NCBI RefSeq assembly: GCF_003334765.1
Contig: NZ_QOWT01000009.1
Length of the DNA: 64,000 nucleotides
Origin: Escherichia coli
Lineage (GTDB): Bacteria > Pseudomonadota > Gammaproteobacteria > Enterobacterales > Enterobacteriaceae
Direction: 5' to 3' (one strand)
The stretch's first letter is position 1. Every line of letters begins with the position of its first letter. This document shows, one piece after another, positions 4,287-33,166 of the stretch. Under the pieces are notes generated by a model that saw only the letters and a program-made list of their open reading frames with translations, had not been told where the DNA came from and did not search any database. The translations under genes were made by a program, and so were the position numbers.

Positions 4287-4304
4287 TTGTATTGTGATCG
4301 GTAA

Positions 4305-4580
<276 letters not shown>

Positions 4581-7053: not shown

Positions 7054-7140
7054 TAGGTCGGATAAGACGCCCCGGCGTCGCATCCGACAATGTGCAGGCG
7101 TTGATGCCGGATGCGGTGCAAGCACCTTATCCGGCCTACA
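7054..7140. repeat. REP element pair (BIME) between phnD and phnE
   Basis: taggtcggataagacgc...gcgtcgcatccgaca and gccggatgcgg...ccttatccggcctaca palindromes. Confidence 0.85.
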
Positions 7141-23515: not shown

Positions 23516-23787
23516 GTAAAACGTTGGCACAGTAGCGCAATGTCCCGCTGTGCCAACGACAGGTACAATATATATAATAAACACATAAAACGACTCATAT
23601 TATTTTCTGCAATGATAGTTTTACTGTAATTTTCCCTCTTCAGCACAAATGCCTAATAAAATGGCGCGTTCCGCTCACACTTCCACTTATTAAAGTCGCA
23701 ATTTCCCAATTATGATAACGCCAGCTTTAAATGACGTATTTTGCATGGATTACATATTTACGACATAAATGATAAATGGAGATTTAT

Positions 23788-25773
23788 ATGAATAACTCTC
23801 GGTTATTCCGTTTGAGCAGGATTGTTATTGCGTTAACTGCCGCCAGCGGCATGATGGTAAATACCGCTAACGCGAAAGAGGAAGCGAAAGCCGCCACTCA
23901 ATATACCCAACAGGTTAATCAGAATTACGCCAAATCATTACCGTTTAGCGATCGTCAGGATTTTGACGATGCCCAGCGTGGATTTATCGCCCCGCTGCTG
24001 GATGAAGGTATTCTGCGTGATGCGAACGGTAAAGTTTACTACCGCGCGGACGATTACAAATTTGATATTAATGCCGCAGCGCCGGAAACCGTAAACCCCA
24101 GCCTGTGGCGTCAGTCGCAAATCAACGGTATTTCTGGCCTGTTCAAAGTCACCGATAAAATGTATCAGGTGCGCGGCCAGGATATCTCTAACATTACGTT
24201 CGTTGAGGGCGAGAAAGGCATTATTGTTATCGACCCGCTGGTGACGCCGCCTGCCGCAAAAGCCGCACTTGACCTTTACTTCCAGCATCGTCCGCAAAAA
24301 CCGATTGTTGCCGTTATCTACACTCACAGCCACACCGACCACTATGGTGGCGTGAAAGGCATTATCTCTGAAGCCGATGTTAAATCCGGCAAAGTTCAGG
24401 TGATTGCCCCTGCAGGCTTTATGGACGAAGCCATCAGCGAAAACGTGCTGGCGGGTAACATCATGAGCCGCCGTGCGCTCTACTCTTACGGTCTGTTACT
24501 GCCGCACAACGCGCAAGGCAATGTGGGTAATGGCCTTGGCGTGACGCTGGCAACGGGCGACCCGAGCATTATTGCACCGACGAAAACTATCGTCAGAACT
24601 GGCGAGAAGATGATTATCGACGGCCTGGAGTTTGACTTCCTGATGACCCCAGGTAGCGAAGCGCCAGCCGAAATGCACTTCTATATTCCGGCCCTGAAAG
24701 CCCTGTGTACCGCCGAGAACGCCACGCATACCCTGCACAACTTCTACACTCTGCGCGGCGCGAAAACCCGCGACACCAGCAAGTGGACCGAGTATCTGAA
24801 CGAAACGCTGGATATGTGGGGTAACGACGCGGAAGTGCTGTTTATGCCGCACACCTGGCCGGTCTGGGGCAATAAGCATATCAATGATTATATTGGTAAA
24901 TACCGCGATACCATCAAGTACATTCACGACCAGACCCTGCACCTGGCGAACCAGGGCTACACCATGAATGAAATCGGCGACATGATTAAGCTGCCGCCTG
25001 CACTTGCCAATAACTGGGCCAGCCGCGGCTATTACGGTTCTGTCAGCCACAACGCCCGCGCGGTGTATAACTTCTATCTTGGCTATTACGACGGTAACCC
25101 GGCTAACCTGCATCCGTATGGTCAGGTGGAGATGGGTAAACGTTACGTGCAGGCGCTGGGCGGTTCTGCCCGTGTCATCAACCTGGCGCAAGAAGCGAAC
25201 AAGCAAGGTGATTACCGCTGGTCGGCAGAACTGCTGAAACAGGTGATTGCCGCCAACCCGGGTGACCAGGTCGCGAAGAATCTGCAAGCGAATAACTTTG
25301 AACAGCTGGGCTATCAGGCCGAGTCCGCCACATGGCGCGGTTTCTACCTGACCGGCGCGAAAGAGCTGCGCGAAGGGGTGCATAAGTTCAGCCACGGCAC
25401 CACCGGTTCCCCGGACACCATTCGCGGGATGTCGGTCGAAATGCTGTTCGACTTTATGGCCGTTCGCCTCGATAGCGCGAAAGCTGCGGGTAAAAATATC
25501 AGCCTGAACTTCAATATGAGCAACGGCGATAACCTCAACCTGACGCTGAACGATAGCGTGCTTAACTACCGGAAAACGCTGCAACCGCAAGCCGACGCCT
25601 CTTTCTACATCAGCCGTGAAGATCTGCACGCCGTGCTGACCGGACAAGCCAAAATGGCGGATCTGGTAAAAGCGAAGAAAGCCAAAATTATTGGCAATGG
25701 CGCGAAACTGGAAGAAATTATCGCCTGTCTGGATAATTTCGATTTGTGGGTGAATATCGTAACCCCAAATTAA
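23788..25773 (+). CDS. yjcS: Putative alkyl/aryl-sulfatase, metallo-beta-lactamase fold (661 aa)
   Basis: ATG 23788 (MNNSRLFRL...) in ORF 23776..25773; signal peptide; [10 protein letters not shown] motif. Confidence 0.9.
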
Positions 25774-25782
25774 TGTCACTCG

Positions 25783-25820
25783 CTTTTGGGGGCGCTGAAG
25801 CCCCCAAAAGTATTTATTTT
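25783..25820 (+). terminator. Rho-independent terminator after yjcS
   Basis: GC stem cttttgggggc/gcccccaaaag followed by T-rich run. Confidence 0.75.
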
Positions 25821-25981
25821 AAAAATATATACAGCCAATTAATAAATAAAATATATAAGTTATGAATGCGGTGGCTGAATAAAGCTATTTTTATTCATCA
25901 AGAAAATAGCCATACTGACGCCTTCAATGGATATTGATATTCACTACAGATATTGTTCGCAGCAGACAGGATGTATTTAAT

Positions 25982-26257
25982 ATGCCAACAGTTCTCTCTC
26001 GCATGGCGATGCAACTCAAAAAAACAGCCTGGATAATTCCCGTCTTCATGGTTTCGGGATGCTCATTATCTCCGGCAATCCCGGTGATCGGCGCTTATTA
26101 TCCCAGCTGGTTTTTCTGCGCCATTGCCAGCCTTATTTTGACGCTCATCACGAGGCGAGTTATTCAGCGGGCAAATATCAATCTGGCATTTGTCGGAATT
26201 ATTTATACCGCCCTTTTTGCTCTCTACGCCATGCTGTTCTGGCTGGCATTTTTCTAA
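25982..26257 (+). CDS. ytcA: Small membrane lipoprotein YtcA (91 aa) upstream of mdtNOP
   Basis: Internal ATG 25982 (MPTVLSRMAMQLKK...) with lipobox-like VSGCS and two hydrophobic segments. Confidence 0.8.
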   Translation: MPTVLSRMAMQLKKTAWIIPVFMVSGCSLSPAIPVIGAYYPSWFFCAIASLILTLITRRVIQRANINLAFVGIIYTALFALYAMLFWLAFF

Positions 26258-26275
26258 TCTATTTGAGACGCGCTC

Positions 26276-27307
26276 ATGGAAAGTACGCCGAAAAAAGCTC
26301 CTCGCAGTAAATTCCCTGCTCTGTTAGTGGTTGCGTTGGCGCTGGTTGCCCTTGTTTTCGTTATCTGGCGCGTAGACAGTGCGCCATCAACTAATGACGC
26401 TTACGCGTCAGCAGATACCATTGATGTGGTACCGGAAGTCAGCGGCCGCATTGTAGAACTGGCGGTCACCGACAACCAGGCAGTCAAACAGGGCGATTTG
26501 CTGTTCCGCATCGACCCGCGCCCGTACGAAGCCAATCTGGCGAAAGCTGAAGCCTCCCTCGCGGCGCTGGATAAGCAAATTATGCTCACCCAGCGTAGCG
26601 TTGACGCGCAACAGTTTGGTGCCGACTCGGTTAATGCCACGGTAGAAAAAGCCCGTGCCGCCGCGAAACAGGCCACAGATACATTACGCCGCACCGAGCC
26701 ATTACTGAAAGAAGGTTTTGTCTCAGCGGAAGATGTTGACCGTGCAAGAACGGCGCAGCGCGCCGCAGAAGCGGATCTTAATGCCGTATTGTTACAGGCG
26801 CAGTCAGCCGCCAGCGCCGTCAGCGGCGTGGATGCATTAGTTGCCCAGCGTGCGGCGGTCGAAGCGGATATTGCCCTGACCAAACTGCATCTGGAAATGG
26901 CGACCGTTCGCGCGCCGTTTGATGGCCGGGTCATTTCCCTCAAAACCTCCGTCGGGCAATTTGCTTCTGCCATGCGCCCTATTTTTACCCTAATCGACAC
27001 TCGTCACTGGTATGTGATCGCCAACTTCCGCGAAACCGATCTGAAAAATATTCGCTCAGGTACACCCGCAACGATTCGCCTGATGAGTGACAGCGGCAAA
27101 ACCTTCGAGGGTAAAGTGGATTCGATTGGCTACGGCGTGCTACCGGATGACGGCGGCCTGGTGCTGGGCGGCCTGCCGAAAGTGTCTCGTTCTATTAACT
27201 GGGTCCGCGTTGCCCAGCGTTTTCCGGTCAAAATCATGGTCGATAAACCTGACCCGGAAATGTTCCGCATCGGCGCTTCGGCAGTCGCTAATCTTGAGCC
27301 GCAATAA
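26276..27307 (+). CDS. mdtN: Membrane fusion protein (HlyD family) of MdtNOP efflux system
   Basis: ORF track 343 aa. Confidence 0.93.
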   Translation: MESTPKKAPRSKFPALLVVALALVALVFVIWRVDSAPSTNDAYASADTIDVVPEVSGRIVELAVTDNQAVKQGDLLFRIDPRPYEANLAKAEASLAALDKQIMLTQRSVDAQQFGADSVNATVEKARAAAKQATDTLRRTEPLLKEGFVSAEDVDRARTAQRAAEADLNAVLLQAQSAASAVSGVDALVAQRAAVEADIALTKLHLEMATVRAPFDGRVISLKTSVGQFASAMRPIFTLIDTRHWYVIANFRETDLKNIRSGTPATIRLMSDSGKTFEGKVDSIGYGVLPDDGGLVLGGLPKVSRSINWVRVAQRFPVKIMVDKPDPEMFRIGASAVANLEPQ

Positions 27308-29358
27308 TGAGCGCGCTCAACTCCCTGCCATTACCGGTGGTCAGGCTGCTGGCGTTCTTTCATGAAGAGTTAAGCGAGCGGCGACCAGGTCGCGTGCCGC
27401 AGACCGTGCAACTCTGGGTAGGCTGCCTGCTGGTGATTCTGATCTCGATGACCTTTGAGATCCCTTTTGTGGCGTTATCGCTGGCAGTGCTGTTTTACGG
27501 TATTCAGTCGAACGCGTTTTACACCAAATTTGTCGCGATCTTGTTTGTGGTTGCCACGGTGCTGGAGATCGGCAGCCTGTTTTTGATCTACAAATGGTCA
27601 TACGGCGAACCGTTGATCCGATTGATCATCGCCGGACCGATCCTGATGGGCTGCATGTTTTTGATGCGCACCCATCGCTTGGGGCTGGTCTTTTTCGCCG
27701 TCGCCATTGTCGCTATTTACGGGCAAACCTTCCCCGCCATGCTCGACTATCCGGAAGTGGTCGTGCGCTTAACGCTGTGGTGTATCGTTGTTGGCCTCTA
27801 TCCAACCTTGCTGATGACGTTAATCGGCGTGCTGTGGTTTCCCAGTCGTGCCATTTCGCAAATGCATCAGGCGCTTAATGATCGGCTTGATGATGCCATT
27901 AGTCACCTGACAGACAGCCTCGCACCGCTACCCGAAACGCGGATTGAAAGAGAGGCGCTGGCGCTACAAAAACTCAATGTCTTTTGCCTCGCGGACGATG
28001 CCAACTGGCGAACTCAAAACGCATGGTGGCAAAGCTGCGTGGCAACGGTAACCTACATTTACTCGACGCTGAATCGCTACGATCCCACCTCTTTTGCTGA
28101 TTCTCAGGCAATTATTGAATTCCGACAAAAATTAGCTTCAGAAATCAACAAGCTGCAGCATGCCGTTGCTGAAGGTCAGTGCTGGCAAAGCGACTGGCGG
28201 ATCAGTGAAAGTGAAGCGATGGCGGCACGGGAATGTAACCTGGAGAATATCTGCCAGACGTTGTTACAACTGGGTCAGATGGACCCGAATACGCCGCCAA
28301 CGCCCGCAGCCAAACCGCCATCAATGGCCGCCGATGCTTTTACCAATCCAGACTATATGCGCTACGCGGTAAAAACGCTGCTCGCCTGTTTGATCTGTTA
28401 CACCTTTTACAGCGGCGTGGACTGGGAAGGCATTCACACCTGTATGCTGACATGCGTGATCGTCGCTAACCCAAATGTCGGTTCGTCGTACCAGAAGATG
28501 GTGCTGCGTTTTGGCGGGGCCTTTTGCGGCGCGATTCTGGCGCTGTTATTCACGCTACTGGTCATGCCCTGGCTGGACAATATTGTCGAATTGCTGTTTG
28601 TGCTGGCACCGATTTTCCTGTTGGGCGCATGGATTGCCACCAGCTCTGAACGCTCTTCTTATATCGGCACACAGATGGTGGTCACCTTCGCGCTCGCCAC
28701 GCTCGAAAACGTTTTTGGCCCAGTGTACGACCTGGTGGAAATTCGCGATCGCGCCCTGGGTATCATCATTGGTACCGTGGTGTCCGCGGTGATTTACACC
28801 TTTGTCTGGCCTGAAAGTGAAGCGCGCACACTGCCGCAAAAACTGGCTGGCACGCTGGGTATGTTAAGTAAAGTAATGCGGATCCCACGCCAGCAGGAAG
28901 TCACGGCTCTGCGCACTTATCTGCAAATTCGTATCGGTCTGCATGCGGCGTTTAATGCCTGTGAAGAGATGTGCCAACGCGTGGCGCTGGAGCGTCAACT
29001 GGACAGCGAAGAACGCGCATTACTGATTGAACGTTCGCAAACGGTTATTCGTCAGGGCCGCGATCTTCTTCACGCCTGGGATGCCACCTGGAACTCGGCG
29101 CAGGCGCTGGATAACGCACTACAGCCGGACAGAGCAGGTCAGTTTGCCGACGCCCTGGAGAAATACGCTGCCGGTCTGGCAACCGCACTCAGCCGTTCTC
29201 CTCAAATAACGCTTGAAGAGACACCCGCCTCTCAGGCCATCCTGCCCACCTTATTAAAACAGGAGCAACACGTCTGCCAGCTTTTCGCCCGCTTGCCAGA
29301 CTGGACAGCCCCGGCATTAACGCCCGCCACGGAACAGGCACAAGGAGCCACGCAATGA
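27307..29358 (+). CDS. mdtO: Inner-membrane efflux component MdtO (FUSC/aromatic acid exporter family)
   Basis: ORF track 683 aa; start overlaps mdtN stop. Confidence 0.93.
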   Translation: MSALNSLPLPVVRLLAFFHEELSERRPGRVPQTVQLWVGCLLVILISMTFEIPFVALSLAVLFYGIQSNAFYTKFVAILFVVATVLEIGSLFLIYKWSYGEPLIRLIIAGPILMGCMFLMRTHRLGLVFFAVAIVAIYGQTFPAMLDYPEVVVRLTLWCIVVGLYPTLLMTLIGVLWFPSRAISQMHQALNDRLDDAISHLTDSLAPLPETRIEREALALQKLNVFCLADDANWRTQNAWWQSCVATVTYIYSTLNRYDPTSFADSQAIIEFRQKLASEINKLQHAVAEGQCWQSDWRISESEAMAARECNLENICQTLLQLGQMDPNTPPTPAAKPPSMAADAFTNPDYMRYAVKTLLACLICYTFYSGVDWEGIHTCMLTCVIVANPNVGSSYQKMVLRFGGAFCGAILALLFTLLVMPWLDNIVELLFVLAPIFLLGAWIATSSERSSYIGTQMVVTFALATLENVFGPVYDLVEIRDRALGIIIGTVVSAVIYTFVWPESEARTLPQKLAGTLGMLSKVMRIPRQQEVTALRTYLQIRIGLHAAFNACEEMCQRVALERQLDSEERALLIERSQTVIRQGRDLLHAWDATWNSAQALDNALQPDRAGQFADALEKYAAGLATALSRSPQITLEETPASQAILPTLLKQEQHVCQLFARLPDWTAPALTPATEQAQGATQ

Positions 29359-30821
29359 TCAATCGTCAACTTTCACGTCTGCTGTTGTGCAGCATTCTCG
29401 GCAGCACGACGCTGATTTCCGGCTGTGCCCTGGTACGTAAGGATTCTGCACCTCATCAACAGCTCAAACCGGAACAAATCAAACTGGCCGACGATATTCA
29501 TCTTGCCAGCTCCGGCTGGCCGCAGGCGCAGTGGTGGAAACAACTCAATGACCCGCAGCTGGATGCGCTGATCCAACGGACGCTAAGTGGTTCACACACC
29601 CTCGCCGAAGCGAAACTGCGGGAAGAAAAAGCGCAGTCCCAGGCCGATTTGTTAGATGCCGGTTCACAATTACAGGTCGCAGCGTTAGGGATGCTCAACC
29701 GCCAACGTGTCTCGGCGAACGGCTTTTTAAGCCCTTATTCAATGGATGCGCCAGCACTGGGTATGGACGGGCCGTACTATACGGAAGCCACAGTAGGTTT
29801 GTTTGCCGGACTGGATCTTGATTTGTGGGGTGTGCATCGCTCAGCGGTTGCCGCCGCCATTGGCGCGCATAATGCCGCGCTGGCAGAAACCGCAGCAGTA
29901 GAGCTATCGCTGGCCACGGGCGTAGCGCAGCTTTATTACAGTATGCAGGCCAGCTATCAGATGCTCGATCTGTTAGAACAAACTCACGATGTGATTGATT
30001 ACGCGGTGAAAGCGCACCAGAGTAAAGTGGCGCACGGTCTGGAAGCGCAAGTGCCTTTCCACGGCGCGCGGGCACAGATTCTGGCGGTCGATAAACAAAT
30101 TGTTGCCGTCAAAGGGCAAATCACCGAAACGCGAGAATCTCTGCGTGCATTGATTGGCGCGGGAGCCAGCGATATGCCGGAGATCAGACCGGTGGCATTA
30201 CCGCAAGTCCAGACCGGCATTCCGGCGACACTCTCTTATGAGTTGCTCGCCAGACGCCCGGATCTGCAAGCCATGCGCTGGTATGTTCAGGCGTCATTAG
30301 ATCAGGTGGATTCCGCGCGGGCGTTGTTCTATCCGAGCTTTGATATCAAAGCGTTTTTCGGTCTGGACTCCATCCATCTGCATACCTTATTCAAAAAAAC
30401 CAGTCGCCAGTTCAACTTCATCCCGGGTCTGAAATTGCCGCTGTTTGACGGTGGACGGTTGAATGCCAATCTCGAAGGCACGCGCGCCGCCAGCAACATG
30501 ATGATTGAACGTTACAACCAGTCAGTACTGAACGCGGTGCGTGACGTTGCCGTCAACGGCACGCGTCTGCAAACGCTCAACGACGAGCGAGAAATGCAGG
30601 CTGAACGCGTGGAAGCCACGCGCTTTACCCAGCGCGCTGCCGAGGCCGCCTATCAGCGCGGCTTAACCAGCCGCTTACAGGCCACCGAAGCCCGGTTGCC
30701 AGTGCTTGCCGAAGAGATGTCATTACTGATGCTGGACAGCCGCCGGGTGATCCAAAGCATTCAGTTGATGAAATCGCTGGGCGGCGGGTATCAGGCAGGT
30801 CCCGTCGTCGAGAAAAAATAA
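29355..30821 (+). CDS. mdtP: Outer membrane factor lipoprotein MdtP
   Basis: ORF track 488 aa; lipobox LISGCAL; overlaps mdtO stop. Confidence 0.93.
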   Translation: MINRQLSRLLLCSILGSTTLISGCALVRKDSAPHQQLKPEQIKLADDIHLASSGWPQAQWWKQLNDPQLDALIQRTLSGSHTLAEAKLREEKAQSQADLLDAGSQLQVAALGMLNRQRVSANGFLSPYSMDAPALGMDGPYYTEATVGLFAGLDLDLWGVHRSAVAAAIGAHNAALAETAAVELSLATGVAQLYYSMQASYQMLDLLEQTHDVIDYAVKAHQSKVAHGLEAQVPFHGARAQILAVDKQIVAVKGQITETRESLRALIGAGASDMPEIRPVALPQVQTGIPATLSYELLARRPDLQAMRWYVQASLDQVDSARALFYPSFDIKAFFGLDSIHLHTLFKKTSRQFNFIPGLKLPLFDGGRLNANLEGTRAASNMMIERYNQSVLNAVRDVAVNGTRLQTLNDEREMQAERVEATRFTQRAAEAAYQRGLTSRLQATEARLPVLAEEMSLLMLDSRRVIQSIQLMKSLGGGYQAGPVVEKK

Positions 30822-30951
30822 AATGTCTGCCGCGTGATGGCTGTCACGCGGTATTTCGTTTCGTCACGTCAAAACTGACGACAGCCTGTTTTTCGTCAGA
30901 GTTTTGAATAAATAGTGCCCGTAATATCAGGGAATGACCCCACATAAAATG

Positions 30952-30968
30952 TGGCATAAAAGATGCAT
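30952..30968 (+). promoter_or_regulatory. Sigma-54 (-24/-12) promoter of fdhF
   Basis: tGGcataaaagaTGCat matches GG-N10-GC spacing about 50 bp upstream of fdhF ATG; upstream inverted repeats (cgtcacgtcaaaactgacgacag) are consistent with an FhlA UAS. Confidence 0.7.
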
Positions 30969-31018
30969 ACTGTAGTCGAGAGCGCGTATGCGTGATTTGA
31001 TTAACTGGAGCGAGACCG

Positions 31019-33166
31019 ATGAAAAAAGTCGTCACGGTTTGCCCCTATTGCGCATCAGGTTGCAAAATCAACCTGGTCGTCGATAACGGCAAAATCGTCC
31101 GGGCGGAGGCAGCGCAGGGGAAAACCAACCAGGGTACCCTGTGTCTGAAGGGTTATTATGGCTGGGACTTCATTAACGATACCCAGATCCTGACCCCGCG
31201 CCTGAAAACCCCCATGATCCGTCGCCAGCGTGGCGGCAAACTCGAACCTGTTTCCTGGGATGAGGCACTGAATTACGTTGCCGAGCGCCTGAGCGCCATC
31301 AAAGAGAAGTACGGTCCGGATGCCATCCAGACGACCGGCTCCTCGCGTGGTACGGGTAACGAAACCAACTATGTAATGCAAAAATTTGCGCGCGCCGTTA
31401 TTGGTACCAATAACGTTGACTGCTGCGCTCGTGTCTGACACGGCCCATCGGTTGCAGGTCTGCACCAATCGGTCGGTAATGGCGCAATGAGCAATGCTAT
31501 TAACGAAATTGATAATACCGATTTAGTGTTCGTTTTCGGGTACAACCCGGCGGATTCCCACCCAATCGTGGCGAATCACGTAATTAACGCTAAACGTAAC
31601 GGGGCGAAAATTATCGTCTGCGATCCGCGCAAAATTGAAACCGCGCGCATTGCTGACATGCACATTGCACTGAAAAACGGCTCGAACATCGCGCTGTTGA
31701 ATGCGATGGGCCATGTCATTATTGAAGAAAATCTGTACGACAAAGCGTTCGTCGCTTCACGTACAGAAGGCTTTGAAGAGTATCGTAAAATCGTTGAAGG
31801 CTACACGCCGGAGTCGGTTGAAGATATCACCGGCGTCAGCGCCAGTGAGATTCGTCAGGCGGCACGGATGTATGCCCAGGCGAAAAGCGCCGCCATCCTG
31901 TGGGGCATGGGTGTAACCCAGTTCTACCAGGGCGTGGAAACCGTGCGTTCTCTGACCAGCCTCGCGATGCTGACCGGTAACCTCGGTAAGCCGCATGCGG
32001 GTGTTAACCCGGTTCGTGGTCAGAACAACGTTCAGGGTGCCTGCGATATGGGCGCGCTGCCGGATACGTATCCGGGATACCAGTACGTGAAAGATCCGGC
32101 TAACCGCGAGAAATTCGCCAAAGCCTGGGGCGTGGAAAGCCTGCCAGCGCATACCGGCTATCGCATCAGCGAGCTGCCGCACCGCGCAGCGCATGGCGAA
32201 GTGCGTGCCGCGTACATTATGGGCGAAGATCCGCTACAAACTGACGCGGAGCTGTCGGCAGTACGTAAAGCCTTTGAAGATCTGGAACTGGTTATCGTTC
32301 AGGACATCTTTATGACCAAAACCGCGTCGGCGGCGGATGTTATTTTACCGTCAACGTCGTGGGGCGAGCATGAAGGCGTGTTTACTGCGGCTGACCGTGG
32401 CTTCCAGCGTTTCTTCAAGGCGGTTGAACCGAAATGGGATCTGAAAACGGACTGGCAAATCATCAGTGAAATCGCCACCCGTATGGGTTATCCGATGCAC
32501 TACAACAACACCCAGGAGATCTGGGATGAGTTGCGTCATCTGTGCCCGGATTTCTACGGTGCGACTTACGAGAAAATGGGCGAACTGGGCTTCATTCAGT
32601 GGCCTTGCCGCGATACTTCAGATGCCGATCAGGGGACTTCTTATCTGTTTAAAGAGAAGTTTGATACCCCGAACGGTCTGGCGCAGTTCTTCACCTGCGA
32701 CTGGGTAGCGCCAATCGACAAACTCACCGACGAGTACCCGATGGTACTGTCAACGGTGCGTGAAGTTGGTCACTACTCTTGCCGTTCGATGACCGGTAAC
32801 TGTGCGGCACTGGCGGCGCTGGCTGATGAACCTGGCTACGCACAAATCAATACCGAAGACGCCAAACGTCTGGGTATTGAAGATGAGGCATTGGTTTGGG
32901 TGCACTCGCGTAAAGGCAAAATTATCACCCGTGCGCAGGTCAGCGATCGTCCGAACAAAGGGGCGATTTACATGACCTACCAGTGGTGGATTGGTGCCTG
33001 TAACGAGCTGGTTACTGAAAACTTAAGCCCGATTACGAAAACGCCGGAGTACAAATACTGCGCCGTTCGCGTCGAGCCGATCGCCGATCAGCGCGCCGCC
33101 GAGCAGTACGTGATTGACGAGTACAACAAGTTGAAAACTCGCCTGCGCGAAGCGGTACTGGCGTAA
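31019..33166 (+). CDS. fdhF: Formate dehydrogenase H (selenoprotein, 715 aa) with in-frame UGA-Sec at codon 140
   Basis: ORFs 31019..31438 and 31487..33166 are in the same frame, separated only by TGA at 31436..31438; N-terminal CPYCASGC Fe-S motif; recognised sequence. Confidence 0.95.
31436..31478 (+). other. SECIS stem-loop directing selenocysteine insertion at fdhF UGA
   Basis: tgacacggcccatcggttgcaggtctgcaccaatcggtcggtaatgg immediately 3' of the UGA; matches the classical fdhF SECIS hairpin. Confidence 0.85.

Follow-up and report, generated by a model that had tools for sequence, protein, structure and literature searches.

YtcA, a predicted lipidated relative of AaeX encoded directly ahead of mdtN in Escherichia coli, as a candidate fourth component of the MdtN-MdtO-MdtP efflux assembly

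AcrZ is a small inner-membrane protein that associates with AcrB, as has been shown experimentally, and that modulates the pump without being a transporter itself. Closer to the locus described here are the FUSC-type pumps in which the gene for a small DUF1656 protein lies directly 5' of the adaptor gene, as is the case for AaeX (YhcR) and YdhI of E. coli, encoded in aaeX-aaeA-aaeB and ydhI-ydhJ-ydhK, and for FusD of Burkholderia fusC-fusD-fusE. In cofitness data, DUF1656 proteins go together with the neighbouring MFP and FUSC proteins, and they have been annotated as 'component of efflux pump' (bioRxiv 10.1101/072470). Moreover, the FusC pump of Burkholderia has been described as 'tetrapartite' with a small fourth subunit, in a paper that also cites an AcrZ-type small accessory protein of a tripartite pump (PMC7682875), and a small fourth subunit has been described in a Zymomonas operon (PMC11989028). 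Because the idea of a fourth subunit for FUSC pumps is already published, reading E. coli YtcA as an accessory subunit is not a new kind of proposal and the gain is incremental; the new point here is that mature YtcA (C27–F91) appears to be a lipidated relative of AaeX and YdhI.

Two other systems invite comparison. With AcrZ (and YajC) of AcrAB-TolC we propose a functional analogy only, as small inner-membrane pump modulators: AcrZ has one helix, is unlipidated and is encoded away from acrAB, and PDB sequence and Foldseek searches revealed no sequence or fold relationship between YtcA and AcrZ. CusF of CusCFBA resembles YtcA in being an extra small protein encoded in a tripartite efflux operon, but it is a soluble periplasmic metallochaperone, whereas YtcA is a predicted hydrophobic hairpin with almost no soluble part, and a substrate-chaperone role is therefore unlikely.

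The DNA analysed here (the window) is a K-12-like stretch of 64,000 nucleotides from E. coli, in which the layout ytcA-mdtN-mdtO matches that of the aaeX-aaeA-aaeB and ydhI-ydhJ-ydhK operons. Unlike the AaeX and YdhI operons, that of YtcA encodes its own outer-membrane factor. The parts of the locus are as follows.

25782–25811, plus strand: terminator-like hairpin after yjcS, a 12-pair stem followed by a T run, the top match of the terminator scan
25812–25981, plus strand: intergenic promoter and leader region, AT-rich (GC about 0.31)
25982–26257, plus strand: ytcA coding sequence, from the open reading frame, RefSeq name, Pfam match and dN/dS
26258–26275, plus strand: ytcA-mdtN spacer of 18 nt, with a conserved TGAGA(C/T)GC as a weak Shine-Dalgarno sequence
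26276–27307, plus strand: mdtN, EmrA/AaeA-type periplasmic adaptor with an N-terminal transmembrane helix (NF007785, 535 bits)
27307–29358, plus strand: mdtO, FUSC-family inner-membrane component (NF008510; PF04632 FUSC, 1.3e-17)
29355–30821, plus strand: mdtP, outer-membrane factor lipoprotein, overlapping mdtO by 4 nt
30828–30853, plus strand: terminator-like hairpin after mdtP from the terminator scan, the putative downstream boundary of the unit

The ytcA open reading frame consists of 91 codons and a stop, running from the ATG at 25982 to the TAA at 26255–26257, and encodes the 91-residue product MPTVLSRMAMQLKKTAWIIPVFMVSGCSLSPAIPVIGAYYPSWFFCAIASLILTLITRRVIQRANINLAFVGIIYTALFALYAMLFWLAFF. 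Exactly 18 nt separate its stop codon from the mdtN ATG at 26276. An initial annotation of this DNA had pointed to a 91-residue frame with a lipobox and two hydrophobic helices 18 nt 5' of mdtN, which the sequence, the AF2 model and hydropathy confirm; the span that it gave, 25982–27307, begins correctly at the ytcA ATG but ends with mdtN, as ytcA itself ends at 26257. RefSeq already labels the gene ytcA, "YtcA family lipoprotein", and the product is a member of the Pfam family Ytca (PF17090), which it matches with 57.7 bits and E = 1.7e-15 over model positions 1–62 of 62. The ytcA-mdtN segment, labelled ytcA there as well, is carried by 5398 of 5426 complete E. coli genomes, and the relatives of YtcA form 474 clusters at 50% identity (E ≤ 0.001) and 1974 clusters at 90% identity. 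Values of dN/dS against orthologues of 0.16–0.46 indicate that ytcA is under purifying selection, and residue-specific conservation of the protein spans beta- and gammaproteobacteria. Frameshifted copies of ytcA are found in some assemblies (P0095 and P0096). An alternative start at Met10 (MQLKK) was ruled out: Met10 varies between genera, unlike Met1 and the AGGA ahead of it, which are both conserved. Rfam identified no RNA elements in or near ytcA. A literature search, which also covered the names sdsRQP and yjcRQP, returned no functional study of YtcA itself; to that extent the protein was rightly called unrecognised in the initial annotation, although the gene and its family are annotated and DUF1656 proteins have already been called pump components.

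The only strong terminator-like hairpins lie 5' of ytcA (25782–25811) and 3' of mdtP (30828–30853) and, as judged from the sequence, they bound a ytcA-mdtNOP transcription unit. The scan detected neither a terminator nor a promoter within the ytcA-mdtN spacer, and further downstream the mdtN stop codon and the mdtO ATG overlap by 1 nt. The 18-nt gap, the location of terminators at the ends only and the conserved junction argue for co-transcription of ytcA with mdtNOP. Upstream of the gene, a leader block at about 25937–25981 is kept across genera, and its 3' end holds a Shine-Dalgarno-like AGGA (25968–25971) placed 10 nt before the ATG. In a leader alignment of 10 genera the blocks ATTCAC...ATATTGTTCG...ACAGGATGTATTT are nearly invariant, and the ATG and AGGA are likewise conserved. 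A consensus scan of the plus strand upstream of ytcA gave no sigma-70 site. The gaps between the ytcA-like and adaptor genes range from −4 to 33 nt across loci, counting only those with an unambiguous mdtN start, and in some relatives translation of the YtcA-like protein and of the adaptor is probably coupled. The operon is reportedly regulated by LeuO and is considered to be weakly expressed under laboratory conditions; sulfa drugs, acriflavine, puromycin, pyrrolomycin and armeniaspirol have been reported as substrates.

The linkage of the small gene to the adaptor gene extends well beyond E. coli. A YtcA-like gene is located directly 5' of the mdtN homologue in 32 of 32 genome loci, and the order ytcA-like/mdtN/mdtO/mdtP is found wherever the contig reaches that far and the genes are intact. 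The linkage is also present in a paralogous cluster, the MdtO of which is only 31–36% identical, and two genomes carry both copies. Five informative metagenome loci likewise have the YtcA-like gene immediately 5' of a FUSC-pump adaptor gene; at distant metagenome loci the order is Ytca/MFP/FUSC/OEP or Ytca/MFP/FUSC, and in a split cluster the Ytca and MFP genes alone remain together. No YtcA-adaptor or YtcA-FUSC fusion proteins were found among about 350 listed family members. Two long hits considered as fusions, P0100 and P0101, are spurious and consist of translated tandem repeats that accumulate weak scores.

The protein can be divided into the following segments, given with their coding positions.

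25982–26059, plus strand: predicted lipoprotein signal peptide, residues 1–26, with R7, K13 and K14 in the n-region, an h-region and the lipobox residues V24-S25-G26
26060–26119, plus strand: Cys27, the predicted lipidation site and mature N-terminus, with the N-motif, residues 27–46, from alignment conservation
26105–26170, plus strand: predicted transmembrane helix 1, residues 42–63 (AF2 pLDDT 85–95; hydropathy)
26153–26191, plus strand: basic stretch, residues 58–70 (RRVIQRANINLAF), running from the predicted cytoplasmic end of helix 1 on into the loop between the helices and overlapping helix 1 at 58–63
26192–26251, plus strand: predicted transmembrane helix 2, residues 71–90 (AF2 pLDDT 85–95; hydropathy)

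The lipobox M-V-S-G-C27, with the Cys codon TGC at 26060–26062, conforms to the lipoprotein pattern [LVI][ASTVI][GAS]C, in which a basic n-region and a hydrophobic h-region come first and the Cys lies no further in than about residue 35; we take these three elements to fit a rule of the PROSITE PS51257 type. The PROSITE-like pattern is found in 102 of 129 representatives of the YtcA family. The most conserved motif of the family, C-x3-P-x5-G-x2-(F/Y)-P-x-W-x2-C, corresponds to residues 27–46 and is predicted to be located at the periplasmic face and the start of helix 1. In particular, C27, G37, P41 and W43 are 100% conserved in alignment A4, and P31 and C46 are conserved to 96%. All but three of 132 family representatives (129) have the Cys, and in 113 the distance from Cys to Gly is 10 residues. 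W87, which is invariant, and F91, which is nearly so, are both at the predicted periplasmic end of helix 2. Identity between genera is 78% both for the N-motif with helix 1 and for helix 2, whereas the signal peptide averages 39% and the loop has 31%. The loop between the two helices is Arg-rich (R58, R59 and R63), and by the positive-inside rule the basic stretch 58–70 is probably cytoplasmic. PDB sequence searches with YtcA, MdtO and AaeX produced no meaningful match, and a Foldseek search of the PDB with the YtcA model gave none below E = 4.7.

An Asp at +2 after the Cys occurs in 3 of 129 family representatives. CyoA-type proteins stay in the inner membrane without this residue and resemble YtcA in having transmembrane helices after a lipoprotein signal peptide and lipobox Cys, although CyoA is unrelated and is a large respiratory subunit. 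Given this arrangement, YtcA would likewise be retained in the inner membrane without the Lol-avoidance Asp at +2. CyoA and YiaM have been listed as lipoproteins that contain transmembrane helices, whereas the same source treats YtcA as an ordinary lipoprotein and does not place it in that group (PMC7139219). The predicted architecture would correct the view of YtcA as an ordinary lipoprotein with a soluble domain.

Several comparisons point to a relationship between mature YtcA and the DUF1656 proteins. BLASTP of YtcA against AaeX gave 38% identity over 63 residues (E = 8e-6), pairing YtcA 28–88 with AaeX 2–61, and YtcA residues 27–46 align with M1-S-L-F-P...G-L-S-F-P of AaeX. The alignment is end to end, the mature proteins have a similar size of about 65 residues, and AaeX and YdhI share with YtcA a P-x5-G-x2-F-P motif in the first half that is followed by a basic stretch. 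A comparison of the YtcA family with DUF1656 by hhalign gave E = 1.6e-4 and a probability of 50%, while the Pfam DUF1656 model (PF07869) matches YtcA weakly, with 18.8 bits and i-E = 1.6e-3 over model positions 4–35 of 56. With an HMM of the YtcA family, AaeX reaches 14.6 bits and YdhI 11.6 bits; of 2000 shuffles, none did as well or better for AaeX and one did for YdhI. Several family members (P0011, L041, P0425 and P0433) carry both the Ytca and the DUF1656 label. The two groups also differ. AaeX is without a signal peptide and starts M1-S-L-F-P, whereas YtcA has a predicted cleavable lipoprotein signal peptide of 26 residues and a conserved Cys that aligns exactly with Met1 of AaeX; lipid anchoring is therefore predicted for YtcA. 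The signature W43, C46 and W87 is specific to the YtcA family, and on these alignments the family is best treated as a sister family of DUF1656, not as a member of it. As for the partner proteins, MdtN shows 29–32% identity to AaeA and YdhJ, and MdtO shows 24% identity to AaeB across 157 residues. It looks as though the three E. coli modules arose by duplication of a single ancestral unit of small protein, adaptor and FUSC component.

We propose, with a probability of roughly 0.6, that YtcA is a small inner-membrane protein and a fourth, accessory component of the MdtN-MdtO-MdtP efflux assembly. The comparative evidence, namely the adjacency at all 32 genome loci and the five informative metagenome loci, the short gaps and the homology to AaeX and YdhI, strongly favours the idea of an accessory pump subunit that the initial annotation had put forward. 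The lipidation, topology, physical association, partner contact and effect on transport that we infer for YtcA are as follows. YtcA would be made from the same mRNA as MdtN, and its 26-residue signal peptide would take the N-terminus across the inner membrane via Sec. Cys27 would then be modified with diacylglyceryl, signal peptidase II would cut before it, and N-acylation would follow. The remaining 65 residues would form a two-helix hairpin with both ends periplasmic and the Arg-rich loop cytoplasmic, and, as in CyoA, retention in the inner membrane would be due to the hairpin and not to an Asp at +2. YtcA may pack against the pump within the membrane, at the transmembrane helix of MdtN and/or the membrane domain of MdtO, by way of a contact face composed of the periplasmic-face motif (C-x3-P-x5-G-x2-F-P-x-W) together with W87 and F91. 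It would stabilise or tune assembly and activity and would not carry the substrate.

A YtcA-MdtN contact gained no support from an AF2 model of a fusion of mature YtcA, a 30-residue Gly/Ser linker and MdtN (19 genome-paired and 44 YtcA-only rows), a crude test in which pLDDT alone was the read-out. The conserved N-segment had pLDDT values of 45 and 66 in the fusion versus 59 and 52 in the monomer, and the pLDDT of the helices was slightly lower than in the monomer. In a tolC mutant, an 8855-bp deletion from alsR through ytcA and mdtN conferred high resistance to pyrrolomycin and armeniaspirol that was dependent on mdtOP (PMC8672772). Since this resistance persists without ytcA and mdtN, YtcA is not strictly required for the MdtOP-dependent phenotype.

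The deletion genotype bears on two further roles for YtcA. It is unlikely, in our view, that YtcA acts on MdtN only transiently, in its assembly or insertion, and is no stable subunit, being made just before MdtN, aiding the insertion or oligomerisation of the N-terminal helix of the adaptor and then leaving. Such a factor would fit the finding that MdtOP works without YtcA and MdtN (PMC8672772), the invariable position of the small gene directly 5' of the adaptor gene wherever the FUSC and OEP genes sit (also seen in PMC7682875 and PMC11989028), and the narrow gaps seen in several relatives, which at −4 to 6 nt suggest translational coupling. The AF2 fusion, however, showed no sign of a YtcA-MdtN interface, and the cofitness of DUF1656 genes with their pumps does not separate a chaperone from a subunit. 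It also counts against an assembly factor that we know of no precedent for dedicated chaperones of adaptor transmembrane helices. Improbable, too, is a negative or conditional regulator that acts as a gate, binding MdtO or MdtN and holding back transport in the absence of a signal or substrate. In favour of a gate, other transporters are known to be modulated by small membrane proteins (AcrZ, MgtS and SgrT), and a regulatory role had been raised in the initial annotation. The sole published genotype with strong MdtOP-dependent resistance is moreover one without ytcA and mdtN, but its authors explain the resistance by the joining of mdtOP to the derepressed als promoter, and this suffices to account for it (PMC8672772). 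In addition, the DUF1656 relatives are cofit with the pump genes and not opposite to them, and a 65-residue hairpin is without a sensory domain.

More improbable again is a membrane role independent of the pump, in envelope or lipid homeostasis or in connection with the alkyl sulfatase YjcS, for which ytcA would merely share the transcript. Genes for yjcS-type alkyl sulfatases do lie upstream in many loci, including the distant L036, but this linkage breaks, being absent in the Kluyvera loci and all paralogous clusters, whereas linkage to the adaptor persists in loci without a sulfatase, in the paralogous clusters and in different neighbourhoods. The homologues AaeX and YdhI, furthermore, belong to other pump operons. 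That ytcA is not expressed as a protein at all, and is a chance frame, a decaying gene or a leader acting through translation, is hardly credible: the frame is small, the region is AT-rich, the operon behind it is considered weakly expressed and the copies P0095 and P0096 are frameshifted, but the conservation data, comprising the dN/dS values, the residue-specific conservation, the conserved ATG and AGGA and the Pfam match, effectively refute this reading.

The reading of YtcA as an accessory pump component can be taken a step further, to a proposal that we regard as conceivable though doubtful: YtcA/DUF1656 hairpins may be a fourth subunit that every adaptor-dependent FUSC (ArAE/PET) pump requires in stoichiometric amounts, the hairpins pairing with the adaptor helix in an inner-membrane ring around the transporter, with lipid-anchored YtcA as a distinct solution for fixing the N-terminus at the periplasmic leaflet. 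If this were true, FUSC pumps would be tetrapartite by design, and past studies of MdtNOP or AaeAB done without the small gene would concern incomplete machines. MdtNOP, AaeAB, YdhJK and the fusaric-acid pumps, all of the FUSC/ArAE type, are without a solved structure. Each FUSC pump module seems to carry such a hairpin gene beside its adaptor gene, and we therefore suggest as a rule that the small gene be included in reconstitution, cryo-EM and resistance studies.

Predicted lipidation of the small protein does not follow the presence of an outer-membrane factor. A division in which the lipidated form belongs to operons with such a factor and the non-lipidated form to operons without one was ruled out by locus L042, which has Ytca without an OEP gene, and by the DUF1656 operons of Burkholderia (PMC7682875) and Zymomonas (PMC11989028), which include an outer-membrane gene. 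On one short contig the order is OEP, then Ytca, then a gene that begins with a transmembrane segment.

Between 25780 and 27310 the sequence is 100% identical to E. coli K-12 MG1655, and this query was matched in 5398 of the 5426 complete E. coli genomes. RefSeq gives the local order as alsK, yjcS, ytcA, mdtN, mdtO, mdtP and fdhF, and names the ytcA product "YtcA family lipoprotein". The initial annotation had described a 91-residue ORF with a lipobox and two hydrophobic helices 18 nt before mdtN, and ORF reading and AlphaFold2 bore out every one of these details. The span it assigned, 25982–27307, starts correctly at the ytcA ATG, but its end is that of mdtN.

Features around ytcA
23776–25773: yjcS, a YjcS-type alkyl sulfatase gene directly 5' of ytcA-mdtNOP
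25782–25811: terminator-like hairpin just 3' of yjcS
25982–26257: ytcA, from the ATG at 25982 to the TAA at 26255–26257, 91 residues
26276–27307: mdtN, starting exactly 18 nt after ytcA
30828–30853: terminator-like hairpin just 3' of mdtP

The Pfam Ytca model PF17090 matches the product with E = 1.7e-15. A YtcA profile retrieved 474 clusters at E <= 0.001 from 1.84 billion cluster representatives and 1974 clusters from a 90%-identity collection, in which the named matches came from Pseudomonas, Paraburkholderia, Caballeronia, Trinickia, Chitiniphilus and Paludibacterium, plus Enterobacterales. Comparison with orthologues from Citrobacter, Klebsiella, Kluyvera, Salmonella, Pluralibacter and other Escherichia species gave dN/dS values of 0.16–0.46. 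Identity between genera is uneven, reaching 78% in both residues 27–57 and residues 71–91, with 39% in the signal peptide and 31% in the loop. Met1 and an AGGA 10 nt 5' of it are kept across genera, unlike Met10, the other start considered; thus, the annotated start holds. These conservation data rule out the non-gene hypothesis, and ytcA is a real gene.

Some assemblies carry a frameshifted ytcA (P0095 and P0096 from the family searches) or split mdtN, mdtO or mdtP ORFs (loci L005, L011 and L015), examples being Kluyvera genomosp. 3 YDC799 and Citrobacter sp. wls619; such breaks stem either from sequencing errors or from sporadic decay of the operon. Two proteins that ranked high in the profile search, P0100 (1321 aa) and P0101 (1953 aa), are spurious rather than fusions: both are translated tandem repeats with a period of ~70 residues, each repeat matching profile positions 33–57 at ~10 bits.

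The gene is strictly linked to that of the adaptor. When one genome per species was scanned, an mdtN homologue lay directly 3' of the ytcA-like gene in all 32 loci, all from Enterobacterales, followed by mdtO and mdtP homologues wherever the contig reaches and these genes are unbroken. A divergent paralogous cluster in different neighbourhoods accounts for about half of the loci (36–47% identical to the E. coli protein for YtcA, 31–36% for MdtO), and Klebsiella grimontii and Citrobacter sp. wls619 have two clusters each. Six loci of distant family members were looked up. Three have the order Ytca, MFP, FUSC, OEP and one has Ytca, MFP, FUSC; in a split locus, with OEP and FUSC on the opposite strand, only the Ytca and MFP genes stay paired, and a short contig carries OEP, then Ytca, then a gene starting with a transmembrane segment. 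Published operons place a DUF1656 small gene directly 5' of the adaptor gene in both Burkholderia fusC-fusD-fusE (PMC7682875) and Zymomonas, where the order is FUSC, DUF1656, HlyD, TolC (PMC11989028). Therefore, what always stays next to the small gene is the gene for the adaptor rather than that for the transporter.

DUF1656 also appears in the Pfam scan of YtcA, as a weak match of 18.8 bits. It is the family of AaeX, a 67-residue protein encoded 5' of aaeA and aaeB, that is, of an AaeA-type adaptor gene and then a FUSC gene. Using an AaeX sequence confirmed by exact look-up, BLASTP aligned YtcA 28–88 with AaeX 2–61 (38% identity, E = 8e-6), a register that, extended by one residue, sets C27 at the position of AaeX Met1. 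Comparison of a 57-sequence YtcA alignment with a 16-sequence AaeX alignment by hhalign gave E = 1.6e-4 and 50% probability. With a YtcA-family HMM, AaeX reached 14.6 bits and YdhI 11.6 bits, again in this register; of 2000 composition-preserving shuffles, none scored as high as AaeX and one scored at least as high as YdhI. The similarity is weak but consistent across three tests. Several family members carry both Pfam labels and a few lack the Cys. On these sequence comparisons, we place YtcA beside DUF1656, as a probable lipidated sister family, and not within it. Three modules of E. coli K-12 share one layout: aaeX-aaeA-aaeB, ydhI-ydhJ-ydhK and ytcA-mdtN-mdtO-mdtP. MdtO belongs to the FUSC family (PF04632, 1.3e-17) and is 24% identical to AaeB over 157 residues. 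From module to module, the small proteins resemble one another no less than the transporters do, which suggests that the small gene accompanied the pump before the modules diverged.

Features of the YtcA protein
R7, K13 and K14: basic n-region, followed by a hydrophobic h-region
V24-S25-G26-C27: lipobox
Residues 42–63 and 71–90: two long hydrophobic helices (AlphaFold2, pLDDT 85–95)
R58, R59 and R63: Arg-rich stretch where helix 1 meets the inter-helix loop

The lipobox is the defining trait of the family. Of 132 representatives selected for a G-x2-(F/Y)-P-x-W core, all but three carry a Cys 8–15 residues before it (129 in total, with exactly 10 residues in 113), and a PROSITE-like lipobox pattern fits 102 of these 129. 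YtcA is accordingly a predicted lipid-anchored protein. Since Asp at +2 is rare (3 of 129), any inner-membrane retention would have to come from the two helices, not a Lol-avoidance signal, as in CyoA. The top conserved residues, C27, P31, G37, F/Y40, P41, W43, C46, W87 and F91, would all lie at the periplasmic face if, as the positive-inside rule predicts, the basic loop is cytoplasmic. In the AlphaFold2 monomer, built from the 57-sequence alignment, segment 27–41 is modelled at low confidence and without regular structure, which would suit a segment that orders only against a partner.

The two hairpins are the strongest terminator-like ones in 25600–31100, and we infer from the sequence that ytcA and mdtNOP are probably co-transcribed. 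The region from the first hairpin to ytcA is AT-rich (~31% GC) and includes a block conserved across genera: the 45 nt 5' of the start (25937–25981; ATTCAC...ATATTGTTCG...ACAGGATGTATTT) are better conserved than the first 26 ytcA codons, suggesting a regulatory or leader element. A consensus scan of the plus strand before ytcA gave no sigma-70 promoter. The 18-nt spacer before mdtN carries a conserved TGAGA(C/T)GC. Paralogous clusters leave just 4–6 nt between the two genes, too little for a ribosome-binding site, which suggests translational coupling there.

The evidence best supports reading YtcA as an accessory part of the MdtNOP assembly, namely an inner-membrane protein with a lipid anchor and two helices. 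Its site of action would be the periplasmic side of that membrane, and its target the MdtN transmembrane helix and/or MdtO. Gene adjacency favours MdtN as partner, and the precedent of AcrZ favours MdtO; a YtcA-MdtN fusion modelled with AlphaFold2, a crude test whose output gives no contacts, showed no confidence gain. Under rival readings, YtcA would help to assemble the adaptor and act only transiently, would be a negative gate of the pump, or would have a pump-independent function. A deletion of 8855 bp, reaching from alsR into mdtN and taking ytcA with it, gives a tolC mutant resistance to pyrrolomycin and armeniaspirol that further deletion of mdtOP abolishes (PMC8672772). Because this strain is resistant without ytcA, YtcA, like MdtN, is dispensable for the mdtOP overexpression phenotype.

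The suggestion of an unrecognised accessory subunit is well supported by comparative evidence as regards "accessory", but "unrecognised" holds only in part: ytcA is annotated, and such a component is a kind already described for the FUSC pump class. Grund and co-workers reported a "tetrapartite" FusC pump, stating that where its small protein sits and what it does are unknown (PMC7682875). What we add, of modest interest, is that YtcA is explicitly tied to AaeX and YdhI, differs from them in its predicted lipid anchor, and follows a rule of adjacency to the adaptor gene. Our literature search turned up no study of YtcA function. The protein is listed among predicted lipoproteins used for molecular-dynamics simulations, outside the group containing transmembrane helices (PMC7139219), and ytcA was once listed as mutated in an ethanol-tolerance screen.

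Published armeniaspirol-resistant tolC mutants carry a run of MdtO changes at residues 2–9 (S2K ... L9C) (PMC8672772). These map exactly to the overlapping mdtN-stop/mdtO-start junction at 27304–27335 and look like a local frameshift or rearrangement, which may change how mdtO translation starts or join mdtN to mdtO.

A YjcS-type gene lies directly 5' of ytcA-mdtNOP in E. coli and 10 other Enterobacteriaceae loci, and another does so in the distant metagenome locus L036 (3208–5250; sulfatase 47% and MdtO 31% identical to E. coli). A type-I sulfatase adjoins the Ytca-adaptor pair in another distant locus, L041 (8321–9268). The yjcS-type linkage is not universal, being missing in the Kluyvera loci and all paralogous clusters. 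These sulfatase neighbours hint at natural pump substrates that may have to do with alkyl sulfates, detergents or products of these.

Downstream, fdhF (31019–33166) reads as two ORFs, its in-frame TGA at 31439–31441 being the selenocysteine codon. The Rfam SECIS_2 element (31431–31485, 87 bits), a known feature, begins eight bases before this TGA and continues 3'. Rfam also identified eight REP-derived naRNA4 copies and one sRNA, all ordinary E. coli features.

Rfam features elsewhere in the window
4304–4580 (tandem trio), 7056–7136, 33954–34137 and 44673–44743: naRNA4 copies
51981–52121: sraL sRNA
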